A DNA stretch of 64,000 nucleotides from Lingula anatina (Eukaryota; Animalia; Brachiopoda): the NCBI GenBank assembly GCA_051362555.1, contig CM120646.1, positions 14,322,001-14,386,000 on the forward strand, in the 5' to 3' direction. Below are positions 7,245-46,574 of the stretch, in pieces (positions within the stretch are counted from its first letter, which is position 1; each line of letters starts with the position of its first letter). Made by a program: the position numbers and the translations under genes. The notes beneath the pieces are model-generated. The model was not told the origin of the DNA, made no database searches, and saw nothing but the letters and a program-made list of their open reading frames with translations.

Positions 7245-8164
7245 TCACACCTTAACTTTTGTAGTATATGGCCGTACGTTTTTCTCCCATTCTAATCTAA
7301 ACCCAATAAAAGATGACAACAGCCCTCCCCCGGCTCCAAAACCCTTACTGATAAACTCAAGCGAAGAAAGCGGTATCAAAATATCAAGAATGTCTTTCGC
7401 CGCTTCCAAACGAGCGGTATGGAAATCTTTGCGTAAAGTCCCCGTCGACTCGCGGTTTTCTTCGCCGTGCCTTTGGATTTTTTTCGCACGGATCATCAGC
7501 AGTTGTAATTTTCGCACGTCACGGGCGACCAGGAATATTTGACCAACGAGCCAAAACCACGAAGCTCTTCTAGACCATTTTTTCATGTCAACCTAATAGT
7601 AGAAAATAAGTGTAAGCACAAAATTATCTTAATATTTAGTATAAAATGGACAGTTAATTACACCTACACTGCTTTCCACTCACAACACTGCAAAAGTGGC
7701 ATGCTACAATAATGATGATGGTGGGGATTAAAGTTGAATAAAAGTTAAGTAAATAAATCTTATGAGATCTACAGACAACAAAATTATAAACAATGAAAAA
7801 ACAGACATCATACGTTTCCGACTATTAGCAGTAGCTTTAGATTACTTCCCATCATCAATATCCATAAGACAAGATGTAATGAAATCAATATTAAAATCAC
7901 GTAACCATAAAATAGATTCAAAATTCAGTCACCTGCACTAAGTTGACTTTCCCCAACCACAATAAGTGATCGATGAGAAGCCAGAGAGCTTTGCCAAGCA
8001 TCCCACCCAGTATCGTCACCACTAACGCATTGTCTGTGACTTTGGATGCATCCACAGCCTTTTGCAAAAATTCTAGTGATGTTGCAAGTCTAAATACTAG
8101 AATAAAAAAGGAAAGCATATAACAAGCATTTTGCGTTTTGAGGTGGATTTTTTATATAACTAGC

Positions 8165-17221: not shown

Positions 17222-20200
17222 TCACAGTCCTAATTTTTTCTTCTTTTTGGTCTTCTCTTCTTTCTTTTCTTCTTCCTCTGCCAGTCGCCTCTCAAGGGCT
17301 TCTCGTCTCATTTGTTCCGCGTCCTAAAATACAAAATTTAGTACTACAGAAAAAATCATTTAATCAGAAAAAGGATACCATGGTTTCAATGATGAATAAA
17401 AAACATCATTCCTTTATTATAGCATCTCAACTTTGTCTTTGAAATACAAACATTATTTTCAAAAATACTTCAGTCTACTGTTTCAATTTGAACTTAATTT
17501 TTCTACCATTATATAACTTATAATGAAACACGTCTTTACTGATAATTCAAAGACTGTACTTTAATAGAAAATTTAAAATGAAATGAAAGTATACATTTTT
17601 AAATCTACAGAATAAATATATAACAATGCCTAATCCATATAATAAATAACCAATCACAAACCTTTACTGGTGTTGTCTCCGTACTTTGCTTGCCATCTGA
17701 TTTTGCAGGGCTCTTTCTCTGCCACCCCTCGCCCATCAAAGATGGCGGAAGGCGTTTGTCTCCAAAAGACTGTGCAGCACCAGAAACGTCATCTCCTGCC
17801 GTCTCCATATTATTGTCAAATGTATCCTCTGCAAAATTTTCTTCCTCATCTGTAAGCAGTTGCAAAAATATCTCAAAATGTGAAAATCATTTGTTTCATT
17901 TTACACATAAATAACTAAATATTTCATAAAGTAAACAAACAGAATCTGTTGCTCCACACTTATATGAATTTTGATGGGAATCTATTTATCTTTTCACAGG
18001 AAGACCCCATCTCAAAATTATAAGTAAGAATCATGGTGCTATTTTGCAATGAAACAACTTAATGGGGTCGTGCCTCAGGTACTTTCCATCAGTGTGCAGT
18101 TTTGAAGCTTGCAGATCAAAGATCATGAAATTGTAGGGTAATTATTATTACTATAAGATTTTTTTTTGTTTTCGTTTCTGCATTGACATTGAAATTATTA
18201 CCATCTTCTTTAGTTTCTGTTGGTCTTTCAAGCCATGCCTGTTTAACTGCAATATCTCTGTATAGTTGCCGCAACCCTGAATCTGAAGGTCCAGTGAACA
18301 CTTTCTCCAAAAATGATGTGGCTGTGTCTTCAAATCCCTGGAAAATTGAGACAAATGAAAGTTTGGAAATGTGTTGTCCCAACTTCAACATGAACATTGT
18401 TCAACAGTTTCAAATCTACCCAGCCTGTTAAATTACACTCCAATAGGGTAACTGTGACTTGATTACACCTAGACATTAGATAGTGATTATTCATTTACCT
18501 TTAGTTACAAAGGTAAAAGGACATTTTATAATGTAACAAACAGCAATTATTATGTTTCAGGATACAACTCAAGATGCAGCAAAGAATTTTTTAAAAAATA
18601 CAAAATACTTGGCTTTCATACCTGGGAGTTTACCATATTATTCAAAAATGCTGTTTCATCAAAAGGGGCTGTCTCTATATGCTCTGAAAATAATTATCAA
18701 ACATCAAATCACCACTGGCAATAATATTAAAATATACAGATGTGGAATCAAAGGCATTTTAACAATTTAAATCAGTTTGGTGAACAGTTTTCAAACTCCT
18801 TTGTCCCTGGCAGTGAATTCAATGACAACAATGAAAGACAGAAGCATGTTCCTTTGATTTATAAATAAAAAGAAATGGCTGTAAATGATTTCACTTCTGT
18901 TCAACATTCAGAATCATAATGAAATCAATTAAGCATAAGCTCCTACTCACTTCTAGATGTTCTGACACCCTGTGTCTTGTAATCTTCTATTTCCTTGTTT
19001 TTACTTTTGATCACCTGCACCAGTTCCTCCTGCCTTCTCATTAGTTCTGTTACCATGGTGAGCAAAGACTTGGTCATGTGATCATAGAACTAGAAAATGG
19101 AAAACAAACAATTGCCAAATGGCATTTATCTTTAAAAAGTTAGTTAACCCTGCAAACTGCAATGATGTTATGAAAATTAAAAAAAACTATAATAAATAAT
19201 TTTAAAATAATAAAAAAACTGATAACTAAAACTAAAAGAGGCTTTAATATGTTATGTCACTTACGTAGTACTCAACATTTAAAGTATGTACTTTTTTTAT
19301 TCTATCAACATGCTCCTTACAATTATTCCTTGTATTCAGCAATAGCCATTTATCCAATTTATAATTTAATAAGATTTAGTCATAGCTATGTTATTTCATG
19401 GACGATAAGGCAACCTCAGCAAAAATGCTCTTTTACTGTAGTTTAGAAAACTCAAATAAAAATGTATTTTACACAGATCCCAAAAAGTACGCCAGACAAA
19501 CAGTGTGCTACCTACCAAATCTCTATGAGCAGACTGAAGGTGGAATTTCCAAACAAAGGGAACACCTTCCAGCAGTCCACTTAATGTCAGTAAAACCTTG
19601 GAGCCATCTCCATCTCCCATGCTGAACAGGGGCCGTACAAAACCTGGGAAAAGAAAAGACAGGTCAGCAAACTATAAATCAGCTGTTATCTCTTTCTTTC
19701 AATGTGATGGTCAGTCATCCCTTTTTTATTTACAATGTTACGGAATAGAAAAGAAAAATAGTCATTTCATGTGTAAAAATTATGCCTTAATAACAAATAC
19801 ATTGGGAGGAGGGGGATTTCAATTTAACCTCTGTTATTTATCACATGGATTCATCGTCTTGCCTTCTTGACATTCTAATTTGAAATCTGTCAAATTTAAT
19901 TCATAAATACAGTTTTGTAAACATCTGAAAAGCATTAACTAGTCTTAGAAAATATTATTCAGTCTTCCAAAATAAAAGTTTCTTTTTGTGATGGATTCAA
20001 TGTCATGTTAAATATTTGATAGTTCTTAAGAGGAATAATATCATAATGAATAAGAAAATTTTCATAATAAAATTTGTGAGGATAGTTTAACAAAGAGAGA
20101 GAGAGAGAGAGAGAGAGCTGTAGCCTGCATCACTATTATAAACAGACATGGGCAGTACAATGACTCACTGATAGCATATTTTGTCCCTTCCTTATCATCC

Positions 20201-23200
20201 TCCATACTGGTTCTGATATGCTCCAACAGAGTTTCCACTGGAGCTTCCATGTTAGGATTCAGCTTCTAAAAATTCATAATTTCAATAATTATTTTCTTGC
20301 CGATACAATTGCATGCTGTTCATCACTCATTTTCTTTTAGCAACCAACACAAATTAAGGTGTAAAAATGGTGGGCAGAGCTTTTGGAGTTACTTTAATTT
20401 CTTTTAATGAAATATGTAATTTATGTTGAAATTTTAAATGTCATAATTTGATATGGATATATTCTATGGACAATAATATGGTCATCAATAAATCAAAATG
20501 TCATCTTTTTTGCTTTAAAAGCACAAGCTACAGATACCAGTACAACTGAGACATTTGTCTGAATTCAAGGACGTGGATGAGTCAGGAAGCTCTTATGGAA
20601 GCCCAGAAAAGATGAAATTCTAATTTATTAATATGATTTATTTTAAACTTTTAAATTTTAATCTACATCAGAGTATGCTCTATTACGGTCGTATCATAAA
20701 ACAAAAGAAATGGCCTGTAATAATAAAGACTGTGAATTTATCATTTTTGCCAAAGACAAGATGTACACAATCAAAGGCAATTATGGGTGTACACTGTTTA
20801 CTGTTGGGGACGGTTTTTAAGGGGAGTCTTTCCAACTATTTGATAAATCTCAGTAATTTCGAATGGACAATTTAATCCATACATGGCCAAACATAAATTG
20901 CATTTTATAATGATAATACTGAAGGTTTTAAAGGGAAAGGACACTGCATATCACTGCTTTTATCCATATTATGCTGATGTCGCATCTTCTGCAAATGTAA
21001 TACACATAGGTCACATTCACAACAGTCCAAAGATCAAATACGGCCGACAAGCTTGAATGCTTGTTGCGCTATCCCCATGGGGATTTCTTTTCACTGTCTA
21101 TCAGAGGATTAGATGGCAAGCTTTTGAGTGGGTCGACATATTTGATCTGCAGACTAGTTACTCCACTGTTCTCAATGCAGCCTTAATGCCACATCTGACA
21201 GTCGATAAGAATCTTAAGTTCAACATCTTATTTCACCAATTTGAGATCGAAATATTTATTTCTTTATCTATTTTATCTTGGTTTTGTAAATGTTTAATTT
21301 CTGCAGAAGAAATGACATCTTAAAAGAAAAAAATACACAGATCTCAAACTTCTTGTCATGTACAAAACACATTACAAACAATAAAACTTTGTTATCAATT
21401 GTTAATGCTACCACTCATAACAATAACTTACATCTACACAGGGCTCTGGTAAAGCTGTACCTTTTATCTGTCTTTTCATAAGGAGCATAAGGGGCACGTG
21501 AACATGAGGGTGAAAGGATCATAGTTCTTAATAAGGACAGGGTATCCTGATGTAAACTTAAAGTCGATGTCATAGGAGTTCAGTGGTGTGTTATTCTTAA
21601 GGGGCTCGGCGGGCAATGCAATAGCACTGTAAAATATGCTATTTTGGAGTGTTTGAAATACATATTTAACATGGAGGGTGAAACAGAAACATGGCAATAT
21701 AAGAGTGGGTTTTATTCACAGTCCTTGGCTGAAAATTATCCTGAAAGTGAAATGTGAAAATAAATCAATTCAGAAAATGAAACATAATCATTACTTGGAG
21801 AATAGTGATAATTTTAATAAAAGATATAAAGCTCTTACTTATAAAGTGAAAAAAAGAACGCCTTGATTCACCATAAACAGTGCCTTTTATGTATCCAAAC
21901 ACTCAAAAGGATAAAAGATGAAGATAAAATTTTTATGTTTCACAATTACACACACATTAGGAAAAGAGATTTTTTGATGGATATGCTCACATTAGGATAT
22001 TAAAACAAAATGTCACTCAAAATAGGTTATAAATACCATATCTATTATCTGCCCTTTTCAACAGTTAAAAAAATTAAATCTATCAAAATCTGCCTATCAA
22101 AGGAGGACAATATTCCCTTCTGCAATTAATAAAATACTTAAAATTAGTCTTTAATAAGTGTACACATTTTCTTATTTATAACACACTCACATAGTAAGTG
22201 CTAAAAATTTAAGATCCACATGTTACACTAAACAAGCAGCTTACTGTGTATGTTTGGCAAATTCGGTTATACTTAAAGGCGGAAAGACAAGGAAAGACGC
22301 GAAAAGACAAGGAAAGACAGGTTAATTGAAGTAATGATAAGATATTGAGGGTCATATATGTCTAATATGATACCAAAAGTGCTTGAAATGCCCTTAAATA
22401 AGAAATCCAGTCACTTTGCAGTGGTTTAAATACACAAATATTCAAATACGAAACTTCGTCCGCCATCTTGGATTTCCGTAGCCGGATCTAGTGTCCTGTC
22501 TTGTGAAGCGCCACCTATCTTAGTGATTCTAGCAGACAACATACAAACTGCAGACAATACTGCAGACAGATATTGGCAAACTAAGAAGATTGAAGGGTTT
22601 TATATCTAGAACTTCATATACGTAAGTGGATGAAATTTTAAATGTCTCCTCATTAATATTACAAATGATATAAATTTAGCAAAGGTTTTGTCATTTTGAA
22701 GACGTTTTGAAAGAATATCCCTGAAAAACTGAGCTAAAAAAATTTAAAAATAGTCGTTGTTTCTTTGAAAAAAATTGCAAATCTACCGGGGTATTGTGCT
22801 TGGTATTTAAAATGCAATAAAACAACTCTCTTTCCCCTTTTTATAAATTAACAAAAATTTTATTCTCTTTCAAGCCCGTAGCCAGCATTTTCAGAGGGGT
22901 GGTTCTCTTTTTCAAAAAGGTGGACCTTTTGACCCCCCGAACCCCCCCCCCCCCCCCTGGCTACGGGCCTGTCTTTTATCCTTGGTTCTAAAATGACGGA
23001 CAAAATTTATAAATTGGGTTTAATAGCAAGAGTTGAAAACAAAATGTCATAAGTATTAGGTGTTTTCTAAAAAAAAAATTGTCTTTTGAAGATTTCGTCT
23101 CTTTTTCTAAACAAAATTTATCACTAAAAGACTGAGTGCCAATTTTTTTTTTTTTTTTTTTTTTTTAATTCAAAGCACAGGTATCCTTTCATTTTTGTGG

Positions 23201-26200
23201 GGAAATTACCATAAAACATTGGTAAATGACAATATTTTTATAAGTATCAACAAGTTCATTTTAACACCCACAGTTAGTTTAAGGGGATTAGTTCTAAATT
23301 TATTTTTCTATTTGTATAGAGCCAATATCACTTTCAGTAAAAAAAAATCATACTGGTTGGTATCAATACAAACTGATAAAGGTAGATCATCAAAAGCTGT
23401 AATATTCTTCTTGTTTAAAAATTCATCTAGAGCTTAGATTTTTCATGCATCTGTACAACAAATATTGCACATTTTTCATCCATTCATACACCAAATATTG
23501 AGCATGTTTTTAAGAAAATTTATTGAGTTCCAATGTATTTCTAATGACGCACCAGTAACAATTATGAAAGAAATTCCAAAACTATGGAGTTCACACCCGC
23601 AATGAAAGAATACAATCTTAAATAATTTGGTACTTTAAATTGCATGTATTAAATTAAAATGCTATATTTTATAATATAACTAAATCATGTTTTCCAAAAA
23701 TACAAATGAATTGCAACTCAAATGTTATGTGAATGAAATGGCAATTATAATAAATTAGCATGATGTAATCTTTAATTTTGAAATAGCACTTTCATCTCAG
23801 AACTCACAAGACTAATGAAATGCTACTGATTAATAGGCCATGGTGAAAAAATATGAAAAAAATGTCTCATGAAAACATTGCTCAAAAAAGGAATAAATGT
23901 ACGTTCAGACAATAAATACAAATTGGCATCTGTACCAACTTGCCTCATTACCAAATTAAATCTGATGCATATCTGTATTTCAAATTCATCTCAACACTGA
24001 GAAGATTCACAAAATGCTACTACTAAATATTGCTACACACTAATAGTTATAAGGCCACAGTGAAAAAATATATACTCAGCATGACTCAGGAAAACATTGC
24101 TCTAAAATGAGTAAATGTACGTTCAAACAATAAATACAAAGTGGCATTTGTACCAACTAGCCTCATTACCAAATTAAATCTGATGCATAATTTCAACACT
24201 GACAAAATACTACTACTAATTATTGCTACACACTATGGCAAAAAAATATATTCAGCATGCTTCTGCACTTCAACAAAGTTTGTGCTATCTTATTATTGCT
24301 TGAATGAAACAGTTTTTGCTGCTCGTCGCCTTTTTGTCTGACTAGGCTTCCTTCCTTTTGCTGCAGATGTAAGTACACTTAAGCCATCATAAGAAGCCAT
24401 ATGTTTGTGGAACTTTGGTTCTCTCAAGAATTTCATAATGTGTCTGGTCCTGGAATCTGCTGTCTTGTCATTCCAAATGGATCGTTCTACAGCATAATTG
24501 GCAAATTTGGCATCAAGCTTGAACTGTCCTCTCCCAATCAATGCTCTTTCAACATCTACATATTGAGCTTGGACTAACTGATGAAGAGAATTGATCAGGG
24601 TTGGGATGTCTTGTAAACTCCACTGGACCTTCATTTTAAGCATGTGATTTACTGATTCAGCATTATTGTTAGTCCATCCTGAGTGCACTTCCGGCCTGTC
24701 AATGATTGTTTGGACATTTTGTCTTATCAGTGGATTGATCCTTTGGTTGTAATAACCTTCAAATGTAGGTACTGTTTTCCTGATTTGCTCTATCACGTAT
24801 TCATTGCGGATGTCAAACATGACCACACTGTCGGCTGCAGACAACCCATTTTCTCCAAATAAAATGCTACTGATTTCTTTTCTAGCATGCAATGGGGCAC
24901 CAACAATATCTTGCAGATTCTTGCTTACATTGGCCTTCAGATGTCGTTGGCAACTAATGATATTTGCATTACTGAAAGCAAATTCCACTGCCTTTTTCAA
25001 TGCTTTCTCATCATCCATTCCTATAATTGGCCCCTGTGTTGTTTTGTCCACTTGCATTGCTATTGTTGAGAAAAACTGGGCGTATGTCTGCCAGTCAGAA
25101 TTGCCATGAATGAGTATGGGTCCTATGAAGATGGGATGCTCATTAGTGCTTGTTCTCCTCAAAGAAATGTTCTTAAAAGAAGTTGCTGTCACATGTAACT
25201 GACCTAAATTAAAAGTTTTATCTACTCCAAGGATGGCGGATTCAGATTCCTGGCCACAGAAACAAAATCTTTTTAAGTCTGCTATCTGTTTGTCTGTGAA
25301 TAGGGTGATAGATGGCACTTTTTGGGAGGAGTGCACTATGCTTTGTATGAAAGGGTGGCTGTGCATGTTGGTATGCAAAAAGTTGAAATTAGCTGCAAGG
25401 TTCCCAGCTCCCGTTGAATTTCTGCTTTCCTGCTTCTTCTTGGTTTGATAAACAGTATTCTGAACCTGTCTAAGATCGGCTGGTTTGTCTCTTTCATTAT
25501 CATTACTTATTATCATCTCTTCGTAAATCTCTTTCGGCTTTTTACCTCCTTTTGCCTGTTCCCTTATCTTTTCTAGTACCGGCTTTGCAGTTCTTTGATA
25601 AGGAGGCGCCCCTTTGGCTGCATTCCCCCCATGTGGAGCTGGTGGTGGCAGTTTACCGATGTATTCCACAATTGCCACAGGAATTCCTTTAATCCAAGAA
25701 ATCCTTCTCTTGTACGTACTGTCTCTTTTTAACGTGGCATAATTTCGCTGCAGTCTGACAACCTCTGTTGGTTGGTCTTTCATAAGACAAAGGACCTTTT
25801 TGCCATTGGAGCGTTTTTCTGTGTAGTACTGGCCATCTTTGAGCAGGACTGTTGTCCATTTTCCATCTCTTCTGCCCATATGTGTTACAGGGGAGTTACT
25901 ATTTTGCCACACCCCACAGTCATCAACGAACTGACTATTTTTCCCTTCACTACGTCTTTCTTCATTTTCCTTGTTGTCAACCAAAAAGCGAACATTTTCT
26001 TTTCTCCCATCAGGAATGTGATTCAGAGTCTCTGGCAATGATTGTAAAAGTTCGATGATATCACCTGCTTCCATATACTTGTTGATAGGTGCACCAACAA
26101 GCTCAGGTTCTACCTCCAGTGACGGGTCGTCTGTCTCAAAGCTGTGGTTTTTTGGTGATGCAGAGGAATTATCAGTAATACTGGGATCGTGGGTAGTGGA

Positions 26201-29200
26201 AGGAACAGGCTGTGACAGAATGTCATTCTCATCAATGTCCACCAAACCTATGGGAGTTGCATCATTCTCATCAGTGTCTACCAAACCTATGGGAGTTGTA
26301 TCATTCTCATCAGAGTCCACCAAAACTATGGGAGGTGTGTGACTGGATCTTATTTTACTTCTTAGTGTAACAAAGTGATCTGGCCGGAATTCATGTGCTG
26401 TTTCAGGTGTTCCAGAGCTTGTCCACATAATCACTGTAGCTGGAGCACCATTTTGGGATACCCCACGACCTGCAATGCGTCTAGACAATGGGGTGGAGAG
26501 GAAGTTATCATTTAGCACAGGTGGGCAGTACGATCGTAGAGGCACCTTCAGAGCAGCACTGATGGCATACATATGACTTAATCCTGCCCATCTTCCTGGT
26601 GTACAGACAGCTACAACTTCATTATTGTAGAGATCAATGAAAGCAGTGTCCTGTCCCAATTGTCCACAATATTCAGCATGGTTGCAATCATACGCTTCCC
26701 TGTACATCAGCATTTCAATTCCTGCCAGCAGACGAATGTGTAAATGGTAGTCTTCACAATCAAAGAGGCCGAGTGAGACAGCTCTATATAAACAATTTCC
26801 ATCTGTCCCAACTGCTAAAGGTGAATGAGTCTTTAGAAGAATGGGTTGAAACATTTCCAATATTTTCCTTGATACAGCGTCTTCAGGATGTTGTATGAGC
26901 ACATTGGGAATATCAGGGATACAGATGCCGTAGGTCTTCAAAAGATGATGTTCTGACTTAGCTTTCTCAGGTGTTCGTGTAGAATCAAGGCGAGTAAGGG
27001 CAGCTTCAAAATTGTACATATTCCCTCTGAATGCACATTTGCCACATATAAAATCCAGTTCTTCTGAGCTCCATTCTTCAAAAAGAGATTCTGACATAGG
27101 AACACACTGCCTGGAAAAAAAAATGAGAATTTAAAGTGACATGTAACTAGTATTTTTATCTATTTATTCTACTTATGTAAAGATGAATTTAAAGTAAAAA
27201 TAATTGCTTTAAAACCAGATCAAAAGCCACAATATAGATTCAATATGACTTGGAGAAATATCTAAAGATATAATGGAAATGGGAGATAAATTTCATTATT
27301 TATGAAATGTCAATCATTGTTCATCATAAAAACTGTTTACTAGTAATACCAAGGGAATTAAGTTGTACACACAACTGGCCTTCGAAAATAGAATATTTTT
27401 TGAATAGGGAGAAAAGAGGAATTTAAGTATAGAAAAGTATAGAAAAAAAGGAAACATTTTTAAAGAAATATCTCAAATATCTCTAAAGCCATACCAGTGA
27501 ATAACAATTTAGCATAACAACAATCATTTATGTTATAAACAATAACAAAATAAAAAAGCCTCTGTCACACCAAGTGTAAATGGATGCAAGTATTGTACAT
27601 GAGAGGTATTGTATGCACAACTTTGAGCGAATAAAATCACCATTTTCCGCATGTAAAAAAAATTGATTTGTGTGTGGAATTGTTTCTTAAATTTTCCTTT
27701 TAGCATTTGAACATACATAAACATTTGTCTGCAAACTAGAAACGCATACAACGTAAACCTTATGTGCCCCTTGCATTTGTCTGTGCATGGGTCATTTTCT
27801 CAGATGTAAGTGCTGCACACTAGGTGACAGCCCCTAATTTCATATAATTTAAACTAACATATACTTAATACATTTGAACTTATGAAATAATACAATGCAA
27901 ACTGTCAAAAATACCATTTTTTCAAGACAATTTTTGTGTCCATACTGCTTACAGTTTTGCTGAGATGGCTTCTACAGGGCCTCACAAACAACAAATGGCA
28001 TTTGTCACTTTGAGTTTAAGTTTGTGATTGCAAATTTCAAAGTATGGTTGTGAAAATACTTATTGCAAGCACAGCAAAAAAACTTTAAATGATTTTGCCA
28101 TGCAGATTTCAAAGTTCAGTGTTCATAAAAATCTTTTTCTTGACTATTTTTAGAAAGGCAAAATATATGAGAAACTGATGAAATAAAGCTTCCAGAGAGA
28201 GTTCATATCCATAAAGTTATTTGATTGCATAATACTATATATGATAAAAGATTTAACAACATGTTTATATAATAAAGTAACTAAATCGTTAAGATGCATA
28301 AGCTAATTAGTTCAATAATGGGACAGTTAACATGCCAAGAAGTGAATCTAAGGAGAAACCACTTATATGCAAAATAAGACATAACTTCATCTAAACTTAA
28401 CTGATCAAGGTAATTTTTGAACTTGATCGTACATTATTCCTATAAATCAGTCCTGCAAGTTTTAAAGCAAAATATGACAGTTTTTTTAATAATGGTGGAT
28501 AAAATATGCTAAAAAGAGCAAAAAAAAAAAAAAAAAAAAAAATGGCAAAACTTTTGGAAATGGTCTGATCAAGCTGATTTTCAAAACTATACCTATTTTT
28601 ATTAAGTCAAAGACAAAATGTCTGTACATAAAAAAGTGGCTCTAAAAATTATTGCTGTCTTTTTATTTAATAGCACTTTCTTTCAATGATTTTGATATAA
28701 TTGTAATGTAGGATTGCATAAAATTTAGACATTTGCTGAAAAATGTCATTTTGATGTAATACTTTAAAATAAGATCACAGAAGAAGCCACCTTATCAAAT
28801 GTGTAAGTATTTAATGATAAAACTTGATCAAGGAAAAGTATGATAATATCAGAATGTCAGGTAACTGTATTGATTGCAATAAAGGAATGACTTTTCCAGG
28901 TAACTTCTTTGATCAGAAAATGTCAAGTTCAGTATTGATATTATCTGGCAGTGATTAGTTAATTGGAATGTCAGGTAACTGTATTGATTGCAATCAAGGA
29001 ATTACTTATCCAGGTAACTTCTTTGATCAGACAGTTACATAACATGGAGTAATTAAGTTAAAACTTAATTTGCAACCATCCAGATAACTTTTTGATGATC
29101 TATGATCATTGAGAGATTGACTAGATCACAAAATTGTTGCTTCCTTGAATTGATCAGCGAAGCAGGTACATCTTTCCACATGCCCTAGAGGTTGAGTAAA

Positions 29201-32200
29201 TGACACTTGTAAGTGAACATAAAGTGAAACAGACATTCTGGTTACATGTTTTCAGGCCTGATACAGTAGGTATGCGAAAGTACATACATTTCCAAGTCTT
29301 CCTAGTAATTATGATGGCATATGCTTATTAGTAATGCTTGAAAATAAAATATTATCATCACCACTTAATGTTTTTGGTGATGTTGGGTATAATTTTTAAA
29401 TCAATCTTGATATATATATCATTATAATTTATTAAGCTTTGTTTTACCTGTTATTTAGCAGTGGACAAAACGTCCTTCCACGATGCCTACTTGATTTTTT
29501 TAATATGCAAAATTTTCAAAAAACATCTCATGTGACATTCTCATTTTTCTCATTCTGGCATTTTCAAAGCGAACTTGAACTCTCATTGACCTTAAGCCTT
29601 ATGCTTGATACATATTTTACTTACATTATAATTTAATGTTGAATTTGCAATTAAGCATAATGTATTTTTGCATCAGAACTGGCAGTAGCCTATTTTGTGC
29701 TTTGTTATTTTCTGCTTTTTGTCTGTACATTTGACAGCTTTGCTGCCTTGTTGAGACCATGAAACTGACAACTCCATGGTTCTAAAAAGGAGATGCAAGC
29801 ATCGCTATGGTTGCAGAATAAATGCCCAATGATTGGTCAGTTGTCAGTATGTTTTTTAAATCTCTTTAACAGGACTACGAGACACAGTAAAAATGCCGCC
29901 CAGTGTAAAGGGGGCTTTACAAATTCAGTGAAACTTCTTAATCAAATGTCTATTAATCCAAAGACACAAATCTGCCCATAATGATTTGATGCCTGTACAT
30001 ATATATTTCAACTACTCTCCTCATATTAAATATATAGCTGTTATCATTTTCTCTACATTTTAAAAATTTAGTAGATTTTTATAGTCACACACAATGCGAA
30101 AGGTTTTAAAAACATCAGGAAAACAGAAAACATATTGCAGATTAATTAGTGAATATATTTCTGATTTTTAATAATTATTGTCACAAAATTGCCATTTTCT
30201 TAAAATCTATTATTATGATATTTGGGGAAGGGAGACAACCAAAAAAAAAATTACTTTTTTACTTTGTTTTACTTCCAAGAAAAAGTATAGAAATTGTATC
30301 TAACTTTAAATACCTAAGAATTATTTTCTAGAACCAGATTGGACAACTAAAATATTGAGAAATTGTAGGAAATGGGTATTAAAGCAAATAGCCATGATGC
30401 ACTGCTAAATATGGAGACCACAAATAATCAGTGGACTGCAAACTAGATAATTTCAACAAGGCAATTAAACCAATTGTTTTTTTTATGAATTTAAAATATA
30501 GAGCCATTGTAATTAGCAACTCATTTTTTTGTGCAACTATTTATTCAAGTTATAATGGTCAACTCTTAATATCAAGGTATATGATGAACTTGGTTGATAC
30601 TCACTCAAGGTTAACGTTTAAATCAGAATGGTTACTTTTTGGGCAAAACTTCTGCATTGTACTTAATTAATTACATACATTGTGTTATATTGTTTCTAAT
30701 TATAATGCATCATAGTATATTTTTGAGAAAAAATTTCCGATGAAAGTATATTTAAATAAAAAGGCTATTTAGGAATTATACAAAAATATATAATAAAAGT
30801 ATATAGTGTTTAAAAAATATTGTTTTTCATACTCTCAAGGTCCAGTTTGTATGAAAATGGAGAAGTGAAAATTTTTGTTCAGCAAAAGAACTTAATAAAT
30901 ATAGCCTTAGGAATTACAAACATCATTTAACTATAGAAAAGTACCTGTAAAAATTATCTTATAAATAATCATTTTTTCATGTAACATGTAACACCAAAGT
31001 ATCTATTGAAGTAGGAATGGAATAATAAAGTAAGAGAACAAAGAATCTGTACCCTATGCCAGAAAAATGAGATTAGAGATGAATTCCATTCTATTTTCAA
31101 TACTGTACTGCTAATATTATTAGATATTATAGAAACATGCATTTAGCTTAATATCATTGTCAGCATGCCAATGTTATGAAATTATATCACTTATTTAATG
31201 AAAAAAAAAATGACAGCTTTTTGCAGAATTCAATAAAATCATCATAAAGAGAGTCTCTTCTCCAGGTTATATTTGTGAATTATCTCTACACTGTTACCAG
31301 TTTATGAGAATAAACTAGTCATAGTATATGATTTATGAGAATAAAATAATCAAAAAATCTGTAGGGACTGGCTTATGATGTAATTGTCAGATAAAAGAAC
31401 AAATCTCTATTGGTTATACCTTGTATGTTATCAAATGATTAACTGGACATTCCATTTTACTAATTTCATGTATATAATTATTGAAAATGACCATGCCCTC
31501 CCATCATCACATTTCATTATCAGTCACCTGACTATTTAAGGTTTAGCATAAGGTTGCCTCTGTTTTAATCATCTCAAATTGTACTATGATTTTGAAGCTA
31601 GTTAAATTTTACATCCATATCATCATGAAAATTCCAGTAAAATGATGGCATTTAAATAACAGCTATTGGAATATGTATTTCAGGTAAATTCATTTCAACT
31701 TTAGGATGATCTTGGAAAAGGAGATTGGTGTTATGGCTCACCTGTCTCTACTTGTTGCCCTTGTTAAGTGCCCTTTCAAAATGATTAGATAATTTGTTTA
31801 AATAAACTAAATGACTGAAATAAATTAAATTACAATATTTCCTGAATCCTACCTCTTTATCAATCAAAAAGCAAAAATAAACCAAAAAATTACAGGATAA
31901 ACAGCATACATCTGTACGTGTTGAACAGCTATGACAGGGGAAGAGACAGTGACTAGATAATATACACTGAGTGTATATCAAAATTCTACTCGGCTACTAT
32001 TTTTTTTAAACCTATATAGCTCATAACACTACCAAATTGAAGGAAATTCAATTTAGAAAATATTTAATTTTTGCTGCAGACAGTGATCCCAATCAGCAAA
32101 ACTACACTAAAACATACCCATTATTTGTTGAGCTAGATTACTAAGAAATAAATTAACAAAGGAAGCAACATAACACTCTTGATTAAAGTTCAAATAATAA

Positions 32201-32986
32201 CGATAAAAAATGAATTGGTAAACATTTTTGGCATAGAGTATGACTTTGCTATTCATATCATCAATTCTGCTTACCTGTGTGTCCATTTTTTGCAAGAAGA
32301 ACACTCAATGACGTCATAACTGCAAGCTGTGGAGCAGACACTGCATGGGTAACGAATCTTCTTAGGTTTCATGTTATAGTTGGTTTGACATGGATCTTGG
32401 AACTGTATACACAGGGCTCCACAAGGAAACTGAACTAAAACCTGCACTGTAGGTGGACTTTAAATACAGCCCGACAGTCAGGTACTCTTTGATTGGTCAT
32501 GGTCAAATTGAGGGGCAATTAATTTGAAAGATGAGTACTTACCTTTAAGCATTATCACAATATCTTCCAAAAATGTCACTTGTTCATAAGAACAATGGTT
32601 AAGCCACAATCTTAAGTCTGGCTTACCTGTTACTGACATCAACTACTCACCTGTCACAAATTATCTTTATCTCTATCAACTAGCAAAAATCAAAAACTGG
32701 TTATTAACACCAATGGTTAACTGGCAATCTCAAGTTCAGGCCTCAGAATCAAAGAAACACTTACCTGAGATTTTTTCATATCTCTTTTAGCCTGTAAAGA
32801 TCACTTTTTTATTTTATTTTACACTTTTCACAATATGACCCAAAAACTTACAGCTATAACTTAAGACGCAACAAGCTGATATGTAATCCCCTTCTCCCCC
32901 TCTTCATTTAGATCTATGTGTCTTGATCTAAATACCACTGTGTAGACATCACACCTGCTTCACAAAAAAAAAAAAAAGAAAAAAAA

Positions 32987-33038
<52 letters not shown>

Positions 33039-34962
33039 TTACATTTACTAATAAATATATCGAACATGTATATGTCTTGTATGCGTAACTACCATACTTT
33101 GTGAAAAATACTTTCCTTAAATGCATTTAAGTAAAGCCTGTTACAATGGATATATTCAATAAAAAGGGTAATAAAGATACAAATATCATAAGACCTGATC
33201 TGGTAGAGATCTGATAGCAAATATTTCTCTTCATCTCACTGTCTAGCTAACATAATTTAATAGACAGAATCAGATTTGATGGAAAAGCATCATTTAAACA
33301 AGGTGCAGATCTATTATTAAATATTAACTTCACAAACTATCAAGAAGCAAGAATAATATTAACCAAGACAATTGAGCACTTAATTATCTTCATAAAAATT
33401 CCTGTTAAATGAAAGAGTAATTTTAACACACTTGGTCGAAGTCAATTTATATTCATAAGAACAATGGTTAAGCCACAATCTTAAGTCTGGCTTACCTGTC
33501 ACTGACATCAACTACTCACCTGTCACAAATTATCTTTATCTCTATCAACTAGCAAAAATCAAAAACTGGTTATTAACACCAATTGTTATCTGGCAATCTC
33601 AAGTTCAGGCCTCAGAGTCAAAGAAACACTTACCTGAGATTTTTTCATATCTCTTCTAGCCTGTAAAGATCACTCTTTTATTTTATTTTACACATTTCAC
33701 AATATGACCCGAAAACTTACAGCTATAAATTAAGACGCAACAAGCTGATATGTAATCCCCTTCTTCCCCTCTTCATTTTGAAATCTATGTGTCTTGATCT
33801 AAATACCACTGTGTAGACATCACACCTGCTACACAACTAACCGTTTTTGCTATTCGCTTAATCATAATTGAATAATTACCTGTCATCATGTTTTATAAAG
33901 GAACAAAATCTTGGTTAAAATGTGTATAAGAACCCGTTATTCACACCATTAGTTTCAAACAGGTTTATAATTTAATACACTTCTCACGTTTTAAAAACTA
34001 TTTGGGTTTATACAATATTTTAAAATAAATTTAAGCTAGTAAATTGCTATTTTACTGTTGTCTGCTAGGGCCTTATATCATTCATAATTATATCTAAAAA
34101 ACAAGGAGTATTGTATCCAATCACCCAGATTTCAAAGCAGTTCTAGACATAAAACTCCTCCAATGTTTTAATTTGCAAATATTTTAGCTGTCTGCAGTTT
34201 GTATGTTGTCTGCTAGAATCACTAAGATAGGTGGCGCTTCACAAGACAGGACGCTAGATCCGGCTACGGAAATCCAAGATGGCGGACGAAGTTTCGTATT
34301 GGAATATTTGTGTATTAAAACCACTGCAAAGTGACTGGATTTCTTATTTAAGGACATTTCAAGCGCTTTTGGTATCAGATTAGGCATATATGACTTTCAA
34401 TATCTTATTATTACTTCCATTAACCTGTCTTTCCTTGTCTTTCCGCGTCTTTCCTTGTCTTTCCGCCTTTAAGTACCACCCTGGCAAATTTGGACCTTAG
34501 ATATATTTCATTTGTTGTCATAATGATAATCCAAGCTAATACTCAATGCTCCGGACACATTTACCATCACTGTGGATTATAATAAATCATTTGTACAGTA
34601 TGTATTCAATCCTTCAAGAAATAGTCTATGCAAATATCCGTTGCTCCCATGCCCATTCTGAACCCCCCCCCCCCTCCCCCCCATCCTTTCACATAGCCAT
34701 ATCGCATACCATATCACCAAATGCCATTATTAACCCAATATCATAACAGGAATCCCACCTCAACTCGTTTCTTGAAATCCTCCTCTTCCACGTACTCATA
34801 CCAAGCATTCTTCAAGTCTGTCAGACATATCTCGTACGTGTTGTCTTGGAAGTTACACTTCACAAAGAATAGAGATTCGTGATCACTGAAATTGATTCGC
34901 CTCCATGGCTTGGAAGTTAATGTCGGTGTCCACGTCCTCCTCCATTCTAATTCGGCAGTCAT
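17222..34962 (-). CDS. NHEJ1: Non-homologous end-joining factor 1 (XLF/Cernunnos), 8 coding exons, ~351 aa; intron 1 (20266-34758) hosts a transposon
   Basis: Exons 34962-34759, 20265-20169, 19643-19516, 19089-18951, 18683-18622, 18337-18202, 17849-17662, 17323-17222 give 1056 nt in frame. Head-domain motifs are PW...YEICLTDLKNAWYE...KRVEKLNPNMEAP and LEGVPFVWKFHL. The coiled coil reads KNKEIEDYKTQG...RKHIETAPFDE. The basic C-terminus KKKKKLGL* resembles the XLF Ku-binding motif. Confidence 0.88.
22264..22556 (+). repeat. Left terminal inverted repeat of the MULE element
   Basis: Begins CGGTTATACTTAAAGGCGGAAAGACAAGGAAAGAC and is the reverse complement of 34189-34481. Weaker similarity continues to ~22611 / ~34141. 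Confidence 0.92.
22871..22971. mobile_element. 101-bp MITE nested inside the MULE
   Basis: TIRs CAAGCCCGTAGCCAG and CTGGCTACGGGCCTG (1 mismatch) surround an internal poly-C tract. TCTTT flanks both sides (22866-22870, 22972-22976). Confidence 0.7.
23790..24260. repeat. ~220-bp tandem duplication downstream of the transposase stop codon
   Basis: The block GAAAACATTGCTC...TAAATGTACGTTCA.ACAATAAATACAAA.TGGCAT.TGTACCAACT.GCCTCATTACCAAATTAAATCTGATGCATA occurs at ~23871-23971 and ~24090-24189, with partial flanking copies. Confidence 0.8.
24293..32372 (-). CDS. PHD finger + OTU-like protease + MULE DDE transposase fusion protein, 2 coding exons, ~971 aa
   Basis: Exon 1 (32372-32275, MKPKKIRYPCSVCSTACSYDVIECSSCKKWTHR, phase-2 donor AG|GTAAGC) joins exon 2 (27110-24293, acceptor TTTTTCCAG|G). 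The join gives QCVPMSESLFEEWSSEELDFICGKC and completes a C4HC3 PHD. OTU motifs are DGNCLYRAVS (Cys 26792-26794) and PDHFV (His 26375-26377). MULE residues are GVDKTFN (D 25220-25222), GMDDEKAL (D 25013-25015), CQRH, and TNNNAESVNH (E 24656-24658). No stops or frameshifts. Confidence 0.9.
26224..26335 (-). repeat. 3 x 39-bp coding tandem repeat (13-aa units) in the transposase linker
   Basis: Encodes PIVLVDSDENDTT / PIGLVDTDENDAT / PIGLVDIDENDIL. The DNA unit CATTCTCATCA.TGTC.ACCAAACCTATGGGAG repeats at a 39-bp period. Confidence 0.9.
28852..29031. repeat. ~66-bp direct repeat pair (period ~114 bp) in the transposase intron
   Basis: GAATGTCAGGTAACTGTATTGATTGCAAT.AAGGAAT.ACTT.TCCAGGTAACTTCTTTGATCAGA occurs at 28852 and 28966. 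Confidence 0.85.
32431..32497 (-). promoter_or_regulatory. Putative core promoter of the transposase gene (CCAAT, TATA-like, Inr)
   Basis: On the minus strand: CCAATC at ~32491-32496, TATTTAAA at 32466-32459, and Inr-like TTAGTT with its A at 32436, which is 30 nt from the TATA-like box. A second Inr-like TCAGTT has its A at 32431. The ATG is at 32372. Confidence 0.5.
32583..33836. repeat. ~385-bp near-identical direct repeat pair inside the MULE
   Basis: TTCATAAGAACAATGGTTAAGCCACAATC...GTGTAGACATCACACCTGCT occurs at 32583-32965 and 33452-33836. The copies are separated by poly-A, (TA)n and unique sequence. Confidence 0.9.
34189..34481 (-). repeat. Right terminal inverted repeat of the MULE element
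   Basis: Ends ...GTCTTTCCGCCTTTAAGTACCACCC and is followed directly by the TSD TGGCAAATT. Confidence 0.92.
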
Positions 34963-35247: not shown

Positions 35248-37139
35248 ATGGCCTCCCTAACTTTACATCGTGTTTTCGTTTATGGGACGCTTAAAAGAGG
35301 TGAACCTAACCACCATGTTATGACTAATACTGAAAATGGGACAGCAAAATTCGTTGGAGAAGGAAAAACGACAGAATCATGGCCACTGGTTATTGCTTCC
35401 AAGTACAACATCCCGTTTCTACTTCATTGCAAGGGCAAAGGGCAGGTATGGTATGGGGTGATGAAAATTGAAATAGCTTAAAAATAATGTTTAAATAATT
35501 TTATAAAAGTAAAGTGGAAGTATTACGTGTCTGATAAGTAAAATTTGTCAGATGTTCAAAACATTTAATTAAATTTAAATAAATTCTGATTGAAAATGAA
35601 TTTAAAAGTAAATTAAATTGAGATACTGAGTACTAGCAATGTTACATGTAGTACTATAGTCATAATCAAAGTAGTAGTAATAATAATAATAATAATAATA
35701 AAAATAATAATAATAATATATTGAAGATCACACTTATGAGGGGCTCATTACAGCAAGAGATGGTAGTGTATTTCAGTTCCCAAGAGCAATCAAGATTTTA
35801 AAAAAATTATGGCGAACTGGAAAATAATGGGGTTTGGATACAGTGTTTTGATTGAATCACGATTAACAAACAAGATGAGGTTAAAATTAATAACTAGGAG
35901 TAAAAGATACTGTAGGTGGAATCAAGATATGTTTTCATGAGGCACTGTGTCTCCACTGTTATGCTTTACCTCCACCCCCCCACCCCTGAAATAAGAAAGA
36001 AACAAACAAAGAAGGAAATAAAAAGAAATAAATACTTCCTTTACCTGTAAACCACCCATCATCCTGAGGATCAGAGTCTGATGTAGAATTTCTCTTAAAA
36101 AACTGATTATAACTTTGACTTGATCTCATAGATACAATATTAATAATATTTTTTTGCAACAAAAAGTACTAGTAAGTTAGTAACTATATTACTAAAATGG
36201 TATTTCTAAGAAACACTTAACGTGAAAACATTTTCTAAAATACATTTTAAAGGACATTTAAAAGACATTTTAAGAGCTGCTTGGGTGTATTTGATAAAAC
36301 CATAAAATTACTGAAAAGTTACCCAAGGTATAAAAGTCCTTGAGGCTCTCACTTTTAATATCTGGGTACTTTGTAGCTTATAAAACTGTTCTCTTCTTGT
36401 TGGTTAAAGGTGGTGGATTTTGTGCTCACTAATACCTAACAACCATTTTTATCAGCAAAATGATCCCACTGCTTACAGCATGACTTTGCATGAATATTTT
36501 GTGCTGGAAAATGGCTTTCAAACACTAACAGATATGGTCCATCTGCTTTTGTTTATTTGCCCTTTGTTTTTACCTATTTCTATGTGGTTGAGAGGCTTGG
36601 TATTAAACTTTGTGATATCAGCTGTTTAAATTTTAATGATATTTCTTTGTTTAAAGTATTTGAAAAAAAAAAGACAGCGGTAATGGGTTTATGACACTTT
36701 TATTTTTTTTCTTCAAATCTGAAATGTACAATTTTTTTCACAGCTGTCCATAAGCTGACAAACCTTTTATTTCCACTCTTTTGATAGGTATCTTTGTATT
36801 TTTTTCCATTTTCAGCTTGTCATTGGAGAGGTGTATGATGTTGATGATGAAAAAATGAAGGAGTTGGACCTTTTAGAAGAATATCCAAAATTTTACAACA
36901 GAATAAAAATCCCAGTATACATTTTAAAAGATAAAGATGATGATTTTGGAAACGATAAAGACATTTTGTGTTGGGTGTATATTTTAGAGAAGTTCAAACC
37001 ACATTTGTTAGAGTTGCCATTTTTGAGTAATTATAGCTCCAAGGGAGAGCACGGTCTGGAGTTTTGTATTGACGCTACACATCCCGAGTCTGCAGATCCA
37101 ATGATAAACCTCAAAAATGAAATAAAAGAGATGGATTAG
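35248..37139 (+). CDS. GGACT: Gamma-glutamylamine cyclotransferase (GGACT/AIG2-like), isoform A using the proximal last exon, ~173 aa
   Basis: Exon 1 (35248-35445) has HRVFVYGTLKRGEPNHH...WPLVIASKYNIPFLL and a phase-0 donor. Exon 2A (36816-37139) follows TTTTCAG and reads LVIGEVYDVDDEKMKELDLLEEYPKFYNR...CWVYILEKFKPHLLELPFLSNYSS. Confidence 0.8.
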
Positions 37140-38355
37140 GATTTTTGTCAGACAACAAGATACTGATGTGTTTATTTAGGAAAGTCACAAAGAAAGTCAC
37201 AAAGAATATTACTTTTTGTAATCACATTTACTTAGCATGTAATGCAGCATGAATATTGATAAACTTGTTTCATTATGCTTGCATGACACATTGATTTTCA
37301 CCAAAAAATAAAAAGAAAGAAAAAAAATTGCATGGTAACAATTTGTTTTCCAAACAGGCCAACTACATACTGGCAAAGTTTCATGTTCCAAAATTTACTT
37401 GTGGTACCAACATGGACTACTAATTCTTCTGTATAACATTGCTCTTTTTCTGCTAGCAAAAAGTTAAAGATGCATATTTCAGGAAAATTGAAAGTCATTA
37501 TGATTCACAACTAGTGACATAATGATACAATCACATCCAATCTTATTGTCCTATATATATTTAATTATGTTTCAAAACAGCATGGGTTGTGGTTATGGTT
37601 TCTTTACTGGTTAATTGCATGTTGAACCATGCTTGTACTCTGTGTTCTTTGTTATCTTTTAACTAACATTAATTTACCAAGTACTCGATATATCTGTATA
37701 CTGAACGAGTTTTGGTACAGAAGTGGGCATTTTGTTTGACATATTGAATCATCTTACAGGATTATGTATGAAATATCAGGATCATAGTATAGTATTTGTA
37801 AAATGGTTTACTTAAAAATATTCTCAAGTTAAGTACCAGTAGATTTATACTATATATGAAATAGTGGGAGCTTTGTGTTGCGAGAAAGAAAGAGGAGCTT
37901 AATTAGTTACTATTATAATAGTAAGAGAAAAATATTTTATGCCTCTTACTACATATGCTGCCCTTTCTACTATCAGACGTGCTGATATAATTTCAAATTA
38001 GACTTCCATTAACTCATTTCAGAGGGTATTAGGAGAAGTACATGAAATAGACGACAAAATGAAGGCATTCCTAGATGACTTTGAAGGCCACCCAAATTTC
38101 TATGAACGAGATAGAATTGGCATTGAGTTTTTAACTGAAAGGACTGGATTGGAATCTGGGTATGTGCCATCAGTGGGTGAAGTGATCCAGTGTGAAACTT
38201 ATTGGCTAAAGAAATTTAAACCTCATATGTTGGAAAAACAATTCCTAGAGAATTATGATGCAAAGGGACCACACAATCTTCCTTATGTGGCAAGGTATGC
38301 ACGTCATCTAGAGCATGCTACTTACAATGTCATAACAGATGTCAGACAATCCTGA
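35248..38355 (+). CDS. GGACT: Gamma-glutamylamine cyclotransferase, isoform B using the distal last exon, ~176 aa
   Basis: The same exon 1 joins exon 2B (38023-38355, acceptor ATTTCAG, phase 0). It reads RVLGEVHEIDDKMKAFLDDFEGHPNFYER...CETYWLKKFKPHMLEKQFLENYDAKGPHNLPY. The FLDDFE catalytic motif is as in vertebrate GGACT. Confidence 0.88.
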
Positions 38356-40301: not shown

Positions 40302-41146
40302 ATGGCCAATCCACCATCCCCACAAAGCAGTGGAAGTGACATGGACTGTGAGATTATAAACCTGGACTCTAATTTCATCACATTTGAAGACATTCAGGAG
40401 AATTACATGCCAGGTAGACCCTATGGAATTCAGTTGTGACATGATTTTGCATGGGTGATAATTTGACCAGTGAAGTGAATTTATTTATTGGTCATAATTT
40501 TATGTCAATTATATTTGGCAAGCTCTTCAATTAACAAAAGAAGTCAGCATCTAATCACCTACATGTAGCAGTAAAAGGCCTATTGTGTGTGTGTGTGGGC
40601 CCAGCATAGAACTACAATATTGGTTTAATTTACAGTCTGATTTAATTCATTTAGAAGGTTTGGTGGAATTATAGAAACACAAGCATCATGTGTCTGGACA
40701 CAAATAAAAAAAAGTGCTTATACAATATTTTGTTTTAGCATTTATCTGTATGACAAACGTTATAGCTATTAAATTATGATAATAAGAAAAATCAATTTTA
40801 ATCAAAGTCTATAATTTTTTTCTCTTGAATTTTAGGAGCAGACATCTTTGTGACATACAGAATTGGGAAGCACTTTATTCCATCCAGCTGTGACTGGATA
40901 GGACTGTTTGGAGCAGACTGGATATTTCCCTCCCAGGTCCTGACCTATAGATACGCTCCTCAGGGGCACTCTGGCCACCCCCACCTGAGGAGTGTGCTGT
41001 TTGATGCCAGGAGCCTCCCTGTAAGTTTTAACAGGCCTTTCTGTTTGGATGGTGGACATTTATTTATTTATTTTTACTTTTTTTTAATCATTATACTAGT
41101 AGATAATCTTCCAACAAATATCATTTTTTTTTTATTGCAACAAATA

Positions 41147-45600: not shown

Positions 45601-46574
45601 CATTAAGCATTATGTAATGTTGCATCAAAATAGAAGAAAACACAATTTTGGGTGCTGCTGCCTTGATGACCATTATGGGAAAACTGTGTTACTTATGACT
45701 GTCAAACTTTCAAAAAAGAAACACAGGACTAAAATGCAGCCTGAGTTGGAAAAGCAGTCTAATTGGCTTCTTTTTCTGGAAGCTATACATTTTAGTGTAA
45801 TATTCATTATCTTTTTGGCATATGCATTGTGGGACTCAGAGCTCCCATGAACATGAAGCCGAATGGTAATCATATTTTCTACATGTCCATCCTATTTATA
45901 GTCAATAAACAAAAATTGGTGATAATTATTCTCTAATTTATTATGTAATGTTACATCAAAATTGACAACAATCTTTTTGCACTGCTACTGCAAACATTAT
46001 GAAAAGAATACTGTGCTACTTATTATCATTTTTAACTTACAAGTCAATTTTTAGGATTGGCCTTCAGCTCATATGAGAAAACCAGCTCTATTGGATTATC
46101 ATTTTTATTGAATTTATGCATTTTTTGTGAAATTTTCATTTTTCTCATTCTGGCACTTTCTAAGTATAAACTTGAACTCCGATGGGCCTGAAGCCTTATG
46201 CTTTTAATTTCGTCTGTGTTACCTGTTGTGCATAAGTTGATGTTGACTGTGCAGTTAAACATAATGTATTATTGCATCAGGATTGGTAGTCTCCTATTTT
46301 GGGCATTATGGTTTTGTGCTTTTCTTAAAGTGTGACTTATGGGCCTAAAGACCTTTGAGTGGGTCAGTCTGTAAATTACCCTTGGGTATCACTAGATTAA
46401 TTTCAGAGTTATAAAGTCATTTGCCTTAATAGGCCATTAAATGAGATTACATAAAGCACACTTGTTGATATTTCCCTGTAAACTCCCAAAGGTAAAGCTC
46501 TCTGCTAGATTAATAATAAGGAAGCAGTGATAATTATGCAGGTAAATTTTGTTTAATATTGCAAATAAGTTTTA

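Follow-up and report, generated by a model that had tools for sequence, protein, structure and literature searches.

The 64,000-nucleotide window analysed here (contig CM120646.1 of Lingula anatina, positions 14,322,001 to 14,386,000 of the forward strand) holds a complete and probably recent Mutator-family DNA transposon. The element spans 12,218 bp (22264–34481) and encloses a whole transposase gene, read from the minus strand, whose predicted product carries a PHD finger and an OTU-type protease ahead of a DNA-binding domain (DBD) and the DDE domain of a Mutator-like element (MULE). An earlier note on this DNA had described such a gene, and that gene is confirmed; the terminal inverted repeats (TIRs) and the 9-bp target-site duplication (TSD) around it were absent from the note. 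The architecture is real, intact and conserved within a known superfamily.

Members of the Mutator/MULE superfamily have long TIRs (>100 bp) and TSDs of 8–10 bp, and both are present. The TIR arms are 292 nt long and 95% complementary, and a weaker match extends to 22613. The left arm (22264–22556, plus strand) bounds the transposase gene on its 3ʹ side, and its positions 17–56 hold four subterminal repeats of 10 bp each; the right arm (34189–34481, minus strand), recognized by arm pairing, lies at the 5ʹ end. The ratio of observed to expected CpG is 0.83 and 0.92 in the two TIRs (0.92 in the right arm), versus 0.32 in exon 2 of the gene. An identical 9-mer abuts the two element ends (22255–22263 and 34482–34490), for which the chance expectation is ~6e-6 per position. 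Between the right arm and the coding sequence, two 385-bp direct repeats (96%; 32583–33836, minus strand) carry splice-site-like signals and are likely duplicated untranslated exons; the variants seen in RNA reads are those of the upstream repeat.

The host gene XLF/NHEJ1 (34962–18119, minus strand) has the whole transposon inserted in its first intron, in the same orientation. XLF exon 1 (34759–34962, minus strand) is marked by splice sites and a Pfam XLF match (E 9e-13), exon 2 resumes at 20265, and further Pfam XLF matches fall at 20170–20265, 19531–19671 and 18946–19089. The insertion point is 268 bp into the intron, at a distance of 472 bp from the start codon of XLF, and it adjoins a CpG-rich head-to-head promoter that XLF has in common with a GGACT-family gene. 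In run X2, depth over the flank and over the element's OTU part is about half that of neighbouring bins, and one flank contig continues for 100 letters beyond the TSD with a sequence that differs from the element, which is compatible with an empty allele. Depth and contig together fit a polymorphic, recent insertion. Transcripts that read through or are mis-spliced into the untranslated exons of the element could have consequences for XLF, an end-joining gene. A functional link between the element and XLF was considered and is unsupported, as there is one intronic insertion only.

The transposase gene and its domains

Joining a 98-nt exon (32372–32275) to a large exon (27110–24293) yields a protein of 971 aa with a single terminal stop; translation thus bears out the one ~971-aa frame that had been proposed across a 5,164-bp intron. 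Coding exon 1 (32275–32372, minus strand) holds the start codon, with an in-frame stop upstream, and the first half of the PHD; exon 2 (24293–27110, minus strand) is an open frame for residues 33–971 and the stop. The intron (27111–32274, minus strand; 5,164 nt, phase 2) is of the GT-AG type, with donor AG/GTAAGC and an acceptor preceded by a T/C tract, and splits the C4HC3 motif of the PHD in the codon after the His. High-copy repeats are nested in it, and DNA depth is very high near 28300–28470 and 29540–29750. Short, very-high-copy repeats are found within the intron at 28303–29752 and also near the left TIR (22880–22971); the segment 29531–29752 is similar to 46126–46323 and 47357–47490.

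The splice is supported because relatives carry the PHD in frame and because introns at related loci match. Intronless relatives keep the whole PHD in frame, and one of them (L001) has the full domain order in one open frame. A second locus (L002) has a GT-AG intron at the same codon, after the PHD His, and in the same phase, and a third (L016) has the same GT donor side. The paralogue P0010, which is 47% identical, combines PHD, OTU and MULE in a single gene model. An artefact of mis-joined exons was rejected, since relatives have the same fusion without an intron. RNA-seq reads over 32275/27110, the check that had been suggested, were not seen: our RNA sample covers 6 of 9 same-species runs at 6–25% of reads each, with shallow depth, and the 27110/32275 joint is absent from the joints listed (3; 15 of 38) in the six runs, which is weak evidence either way. 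Sense RNA depth over exon 2 is 0.6–5.7 in runs X14 and X15, ≤0.9 in X13 and ~0 in X10, X11 and X16; unique intron bins are at ~0. The public L. anatina gene model (P0001, 806 aa) begins within the OTU and is without the PHD and the catalytic Cys. Pfam E values are 4e-4 for MULE and 5e-4 for OTU (exon 2) and 0.024 for PHD (exon 1), all below the curated cut-off. The motifs stand where the earlier note had placed them: the PHD, the OTU DGNC and DHF, the acidic repeats, DDCGVW...YKRRISW...IVEY...PHG, and the MULE D/D/CxxH/E.

The PHD, whose second half occupies 27032–27110 (minus strand), shows the features of H3K4me readers: the C4HC3 motif, a cage Trp at the second position ahead of the His, and an aromatic residue that precedes the first Cys. 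The top matches of its profile are Pygopus (E 6e-11, Pygopus 2), MLL1 PHD3, Dido and BPTF. The cage residues of the Pygopus PHD are given as Y341 and W366 in the accessible text of the source (PMC2726290); they align with Y8 and W30 here, both encoded by exon 1, with an aromatic residue in 13 of 16 rows of the family alignment and Trp in 18 of 19. Two of the three Pygopus cage walls are thus kept. Judged by its motif and alignment, the PHD groups with fingers that read H3K4me2/3, an active mark, and targeting of insertion fits this better than recognition of silenced chromatin.

The OTU domain (26354–27013, minus strand) is of the vertnin type. It has the OTU fold, the D-x-x-C loop (D136-G-N-C139) and the catalytic His (H278) of an OTU deubiquitinase, and among aligned relatives the catalytic Cys is kept in 57 of 60 and the His in 61 of 68. 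A single-sequence search of PDB gave only a spurious match to penicillin acylase and OTUD1 at E 0.12. With the profile, all 38 of the 38 solved-structure matches are OTU-family proteases of the ubiquitin/ISG15 type, the nearest being Cezanne, OTUD1, OTUD3 and OTUD5, and Foldseek on the OTU model also returns OTU-family matches. Since none of the 38 is a SUMO protease, removal of SUMO by this domain is unlikely; of the proposal that it removes ubiquitin or SUMO, the ubiquitin part stands. In Atlas, the nearest predicted structure to the OTU of the paralogue is vertnin, at TM 0.81 over 213 residues, versus 0.58 for OTUD1, in agreement with the vertnin link drawn earlier. The OTU is under purifying selection in the one informative, unsaturated pair of loci (L042/L046; dN/dS 0.13, versus 0.15 for the DBD), most other locus pairs being saturated, and neutral evolution of this region was not seen in that pair. 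Mean pairwise identity is 32% for the OTU and 38% for the DDE, and the pairwise values of the two domains are correlated (rho 0.33, 0 of 999 permutations). Five further proteins (P0169, P0166, P0167, P0170 and P0171) have the same OTU type without a MULE match, and P0169 adds BED and C2H2 fingers; the OTU module may thus be common to other transposon families.

Three 13-aa acidic repeats (residues 293–329), encoded by 39-nt units at 26222–26332 (minus strand), fall at the start of a linker that the structure model shows as disordered (residues 288–366). They had been read as three repeats resembling SUMO-interaction motifs (SIMs). Repeat 2 misses the SIM pattern, and, apart from the near-identical record of this very protein, nothing among the relatives matched the triple region; as the relatives indicate, the triplication is a copy-specific 39-nt tandem expansion. 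What recurs in the family is one SIM-like motif ~15 residues after the catalytic His, and the first repeat stands at that distance. We examined the 25 residues after the OTU in 61 relatives, with 196 later segments as controls. A pre-set ELM pattern matched 10 of the 61 versus 4.5 expected, and 14 of the 196 controls. A post hoc pattern, chosen after seeing the data, matched 11 of the 61 versus 1.1 expected, and 3 of the 196.

The DBD (25610–26092, minus strand; model pLDDT 94) follows the linker. Its top six VIA matches are Ssr4, GCM, NAC, WRKY and two fungal WOPR-type chains, with middling Z scores (5.1–7.3); all six, at Z≥5, are of the WRKY-GCM1 type of fold, which is given as the usual fold of MULE DNA-binding domains in the text available to us (PMC1702500). 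One Cys and one His of the zinc ligands are conserved, not the full set. Within this fold, the nearest family appears to be the CG-1 domain of CAMTA proteins. The top four predicted structures in Atlas are CAMTA clusters, at TM 0.52–0.54, below the Atlas bar for naming. Pfam CG-1 (PF03859) is matched by 3 of 73 proteins and by 3 of 17 DBD fragments (best E 3e-4), and is the only Pfam family matched by more than one DBD fragment. The window's own DBD has no Pfam CG-1 match, its profile has no PDB sequence match, and Foldseek on the model finds nothing at E≤0.001. The Tyr-to-Trp spacing of 15 in the DBD equals that between Y103 and W118 of CAMTA3 (PMC10417383). The link to CG-1, drawn from predicted models and sequence, is weak but concordant. 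One relative, P0095, has a CG-1 score of 27.4 versus a cut-off of 23.5 and three tandem CG-1-like copies; with these three domains and without a DDE, it is a possible domesticated transcription factor.

The DDE domain (24590–25327, minus strand), supported by Pfam MULE, conservation and Foldseek, has D663, D732, C753xxH756 and E851. Aligned relatives keep these residues at 93–95% (D 84/88, D 78/82, H 78/83, E 72/76). The best Foldseek match of its model (pLDDT 86.8) is the ISCth4 transposase (E 5e-6), and it also matches the Hermes and P-element transposases. The domain has (C/D)xxH after the second Asp and a Trp (W845) before the Glu, as in the definition given in the accessible text of PMC5499845. 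No Pfam match to a FLYWCH/SWIM finger, a trait of Phantom MULEs, was found in 30 relatives; the survey table allows "none" for the Phantom group.

Relatives, a shorter derivative and neighbouring features

The family is large: 4,478 representatives match at E≤0.001, and the named hosts are all invertebrates, with brachiopod, lancelets, prawn and horsehair worm among them. Domain orders for 155 proteins comprise 14 PHD-OTU-DBD-DDE, 28 OTU-DBD-DDE, 49 DBD-DDE, 41 DDE only, 1 PHD-DBD-DDE and 22 other partial forms; the counts rest on profiles made from this family itself, and single exons or partial gene calls probably account for many of the short forms. Does the architecture recur inside TIRs, as had been asked? 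The domain order itself recurs in the 14 proteins, and at one locus (L007) all four domains lie within 79% inverted repeats without a TSD. Distant inverted repeats were found at 7 of 82 loci. Among these, an exact-match TSD candidate was seen only at L012, where the flank is repetitive; L067 has 8 of 9 positions matching by eye, and L015 and L028 look like other elements. The inverted repeats of L012, L020 and L067 also start with (C/G)GGT and contain short tandem repeats. Among the 82 loci, none beyond the window's own combines four domains, TIR and TSD. None of the 44 pattern matches in viral contigs is a relative. Two whole contigs (L081, L082) with family members come from a bacterial metagenome-assembled genome labelled Sedimenticola, and are likely host DNA in the bin.

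These relatives bear on whether the PHD and OTU might be passive cargo, that is, captured host fragments without a role. MULEs are described as capturing gene fragments in the text available (PMC6431247), and the 49 DBD-DDE relatives would fit such an origin, with the caution about partial gene calls given above. However, catalytic residues are kept at 32% mean identity, dN/dS is 0.13 and the intron is conserved. We regard this explanation as largely refuted and give it almost no credence.

A shorter derivative of the element is present in DNA contigs from two studies, in which 26286 is joined to the upstream untranslated repeat at ~33499; the join is placed there because the accompanying variants identify the upstream repeat copy. 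The derivative is without the PHD exon, the intron, the OTU and the first SIM repeat, and retains the DBD and DDE. Among the substitutions listed for its exon 2, six of seven are synonymous and one changes Ile to Leu. Beyond the join, the first Met in frame is Met379, where the DBD begins, and the derivative could possibly encode a short transposase. Retention of only the part after the linker, with those synonymous changes, would also fit a role in which the OTU cuts the polyprotein in the disordered linker and releases a DBD-DDE transposase. Such self-processing was proposed for a Medicago MULE-OTU fusion (PMC1702500, accessible text). Nonetheless, the linker alignment contains no conserved cleavage motif, and all solved OTU matches are isopeptidases for ubiquitin-like tags, which makes self-processing very unlikely.

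Other features of the window lie outside the element. The GGACT-family gene (35248–38355, plus strand), head to head with XLF, has two similar downstream exons (36759–37139 and 38002–38355), which suggests alternative last exons or a tandem duplicate. Exons of PEX11 (7245–7592), mitochondrial ribosomal L32 (11356–11763) and a SKICH-domain gene (40829–41100) are also present, as are tandem arrays at 43779–44400 and 44780–46216, with units of 161 bp and ~337 bp. A 238-aa open frame at 52905–53621 lies in a GC-richer block with several overlapping open reading frames.

Possible roles of the accessory domains

What might a transposase gain from a PHD, an OTU and a SIM? The explanation that we prefer, and consider moderately probable, is that these extras tether the transposase to H3K4-methylated chromatin and strip ubiquitin from a SUMO-marked transposition complex, blocking its dismantling by the host. 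The SIM and OTU together would form a SUMO-targeted deubiquitinase that works on the transposase or on proteins at the cut site and opposes SUMO-targeted ubiquitin ligases. Binding of the PHD to H3K4me2/3 would bias insertion toward gene starts, and the position of the element, 472 bp away from where the XLF coding sequence starts, fits such targeting. By analogy with known relatives, the CG-1-like domain would bind the TIR ends and the 10-bp subterminal repeats. The DDE would excise via flank hairpins and insert with a 9-bp stagger, as judged from Muta1, for which hairpin-on-flank excision and cut-and-paste by a TIR-binding DDE are described in the accessible text (PMC5499845). Because some lineages do without the OTU, the accessory module would be an aid and not a requirement.

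Several observations weigh against targeting and self-protection. Exon 1 has zero sense RNA reads, and no splice-crossing reads were found in the six shallow runs. One relative (P0009) has PHD-DBD-DDE without the OTU, and the near-identical, decaying pair L031/L014 gives an OTU dN/dS of 1.3, on 9 changes. The Asp352 lip of Pygopus has no counterpart in the family alignment. Enrichment of the SIM is only ~twofold with the pre-set pattern, an antiparallel SIM pattern matches 3 of 61 versus 2.5 expected, which is no enrichment, and the motif is absent from the closest paralogue, P0010. The derivative has ~2-fold the depth of the full element (112.8 and 10.2 versus 54–58 and 5–6 for the OTU part, in two runs); since deletion derivatives can be mobilized in trans, its abundance alone is no proof that the element can do without the module. 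The insertion site is one case only. Moreover, maize Mu also prefers H3K4me3 regions and gene 5ʹ ends (PMC2774946, accessible text), and the accessible part of PMC6446971 lists no PHD for the maize Mu group. Thus, the XLF insertion fits targeting without singling it out.

An alternative function for the OTU, and the one that the earlier note had put forward first, is anti-silencing: guided by the DBD, the OTU would reach the TIR promoter of its own element, dock there on SUMOylated repressors, remove, for example, H2A ubiquitin, and sustain transcription. Transposon silencing depends on SUMO, a SIM-like motif adjoins the OTU, TIR CpGs are kept relative to exon 2, and there is low sense transcription in some RNA runs. 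However, the PHD groups with readers of an active mark, the OTU matches ubiquitin-type and not SUMO proteases, and exon-2 RNA depth is ≤0.55 in three of the four runs of the first RNA set. A protein fused to the transposase would also exist only after the element is already expressed. Anti-silencing is not favoured over targeting and self-protection, and we consider it unlikely.

We think still less likely, and decidedly doubtful, that the OTU steers repair by clearing ubiquitin signals at the excision break and shifting the pathway that closes the donor site. This role was put forward for Ginger1 OTU and Ulp1 domains (PMC2836005, accessible text), MULE excision is described as leaving hairpin ends for host repair (PMC5499845, accessible text), and the nearest solved OTUs, Cezanne, OTUD1, OTUD3 and OTUD5, would be in keeping with it. 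The location in XLF is, however, one insertion that gene-start preference explains adequately. The earlier interpretation is partly supported by our analysis, in its domain calls, splice, vertnin link and non-neutral OTU, with correction on the PHD, SUMO, the SIMs and novelty.

Comparison with known systems

The concept of such a fusion is not new, although the earlier note knew of no characterized case of the four-part architecture: a Hydra MULE with an OTU is listed in the accessible text of PMC6446971, and transposases with a protease plus a PHD, together with the same repair hypothesis, appear in that of PMC2836005. The former (Dupeyron et al. 2019) includes MuDR-6_HM from Hydra (group 14) and MULE-Cg from oyster (group 15), animal MULEs with one open reading frame, and gives group 14 an "Ovarian Tumour Gene" motif. 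Its available text lists no zinc finger, TIR or TSD for group 14 and describes no PHD, SIM or DBD, and the comparison is by description only. MuDR-2_Cgi from oyster has 296-bp TIRs, versus 292 in our element. In Ginger1 transposases and in Mutator elements with Ulp1 (Bao et al. 2010, PMC2836005), the transposase is fused to an OTU or Ulp1, and one family has Ulp1 and a PHD; in contrast to our element, Ginger1 has an integrase-type DDE and C-terminal domains, and OTU and PHD do not occur together in its table. The Medicago MULE-OTU and the Ciona and C. elegans MULE-PHD fusions (Babu et al. 2006, PMC1702500) combine a WRKY-GCM1 DBD with an OTU or a PHD, but these are C-terminal and in different proteins, and the accessible text mentions neither CG-1 nor CAMTA. 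Muta1 of Aedes (PMC5499845) resembles our element in its long TIR, terminal motif, subterminal repeats, 8–9-bp TSD, (C/D)xxH DDE and Trp before the Glu; it belongs to the FLYWCH-type clade, with no protease or PHD described in the text available. An OTU on Helentrons has been reported (PMC6431247, accessible text), and the accessible portions of PMC10027918 and PMC13290587 contain nothing on this family. In the full-text literature, with subscription journals outside the scope, we found no publication on a CG-1-transposase link or on the N-terminal PHD-OTU-SIM order, and our literature searches found no functional test of an OTU-bearing transposase.

Two host genes are also similar in part. 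The N-terminal domain of vertnin (VRTN) superposes on the OTU region of the element, the only region in common. Vertnin has an OTU without a catalytic site (PMC10318531, accessible text) and helix-turn-helix domains (PMC3024977) in place of CG-1-like and DDE domains, whereas the element has intact OTU residues and a DDE. In CAMTA proteins, CG-1 is followed by TIG, ankyrin and IQ domains, and there is no DDE; the element has a DDE after its DBD and no Pfam matches to TIG, ankyrin or IQ domains. Both vertnin and CAMTA may be derived from elements of this kind.

Since 2006–2010, there has been speculation about why ubiquitin or SUMO proteases are found on transposases. An element that is intact between defined ends, and that has a natural derivative without the module, makes the question directly testable. 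What the locus adds is such a testable copy, its deletion derivative, and the links to CG-1 and vertnin. For the PHD, the best sequence matches are Pygopus, MLL1 PHD3, Dido and BPTF, whose cage Tyr and Trp are kept here; unlike that of Pygopus, the element's PHD has no equivalent of D352 and is fused in cis to a transposase. Its functional analogue would be the PHD of RAG2, with RAG1-RAG2 targeting as the parallel case for a PHD-guided transposase. If the explanation that we prefer is correct, the Lingula element would be a natural parallel to that targeting.

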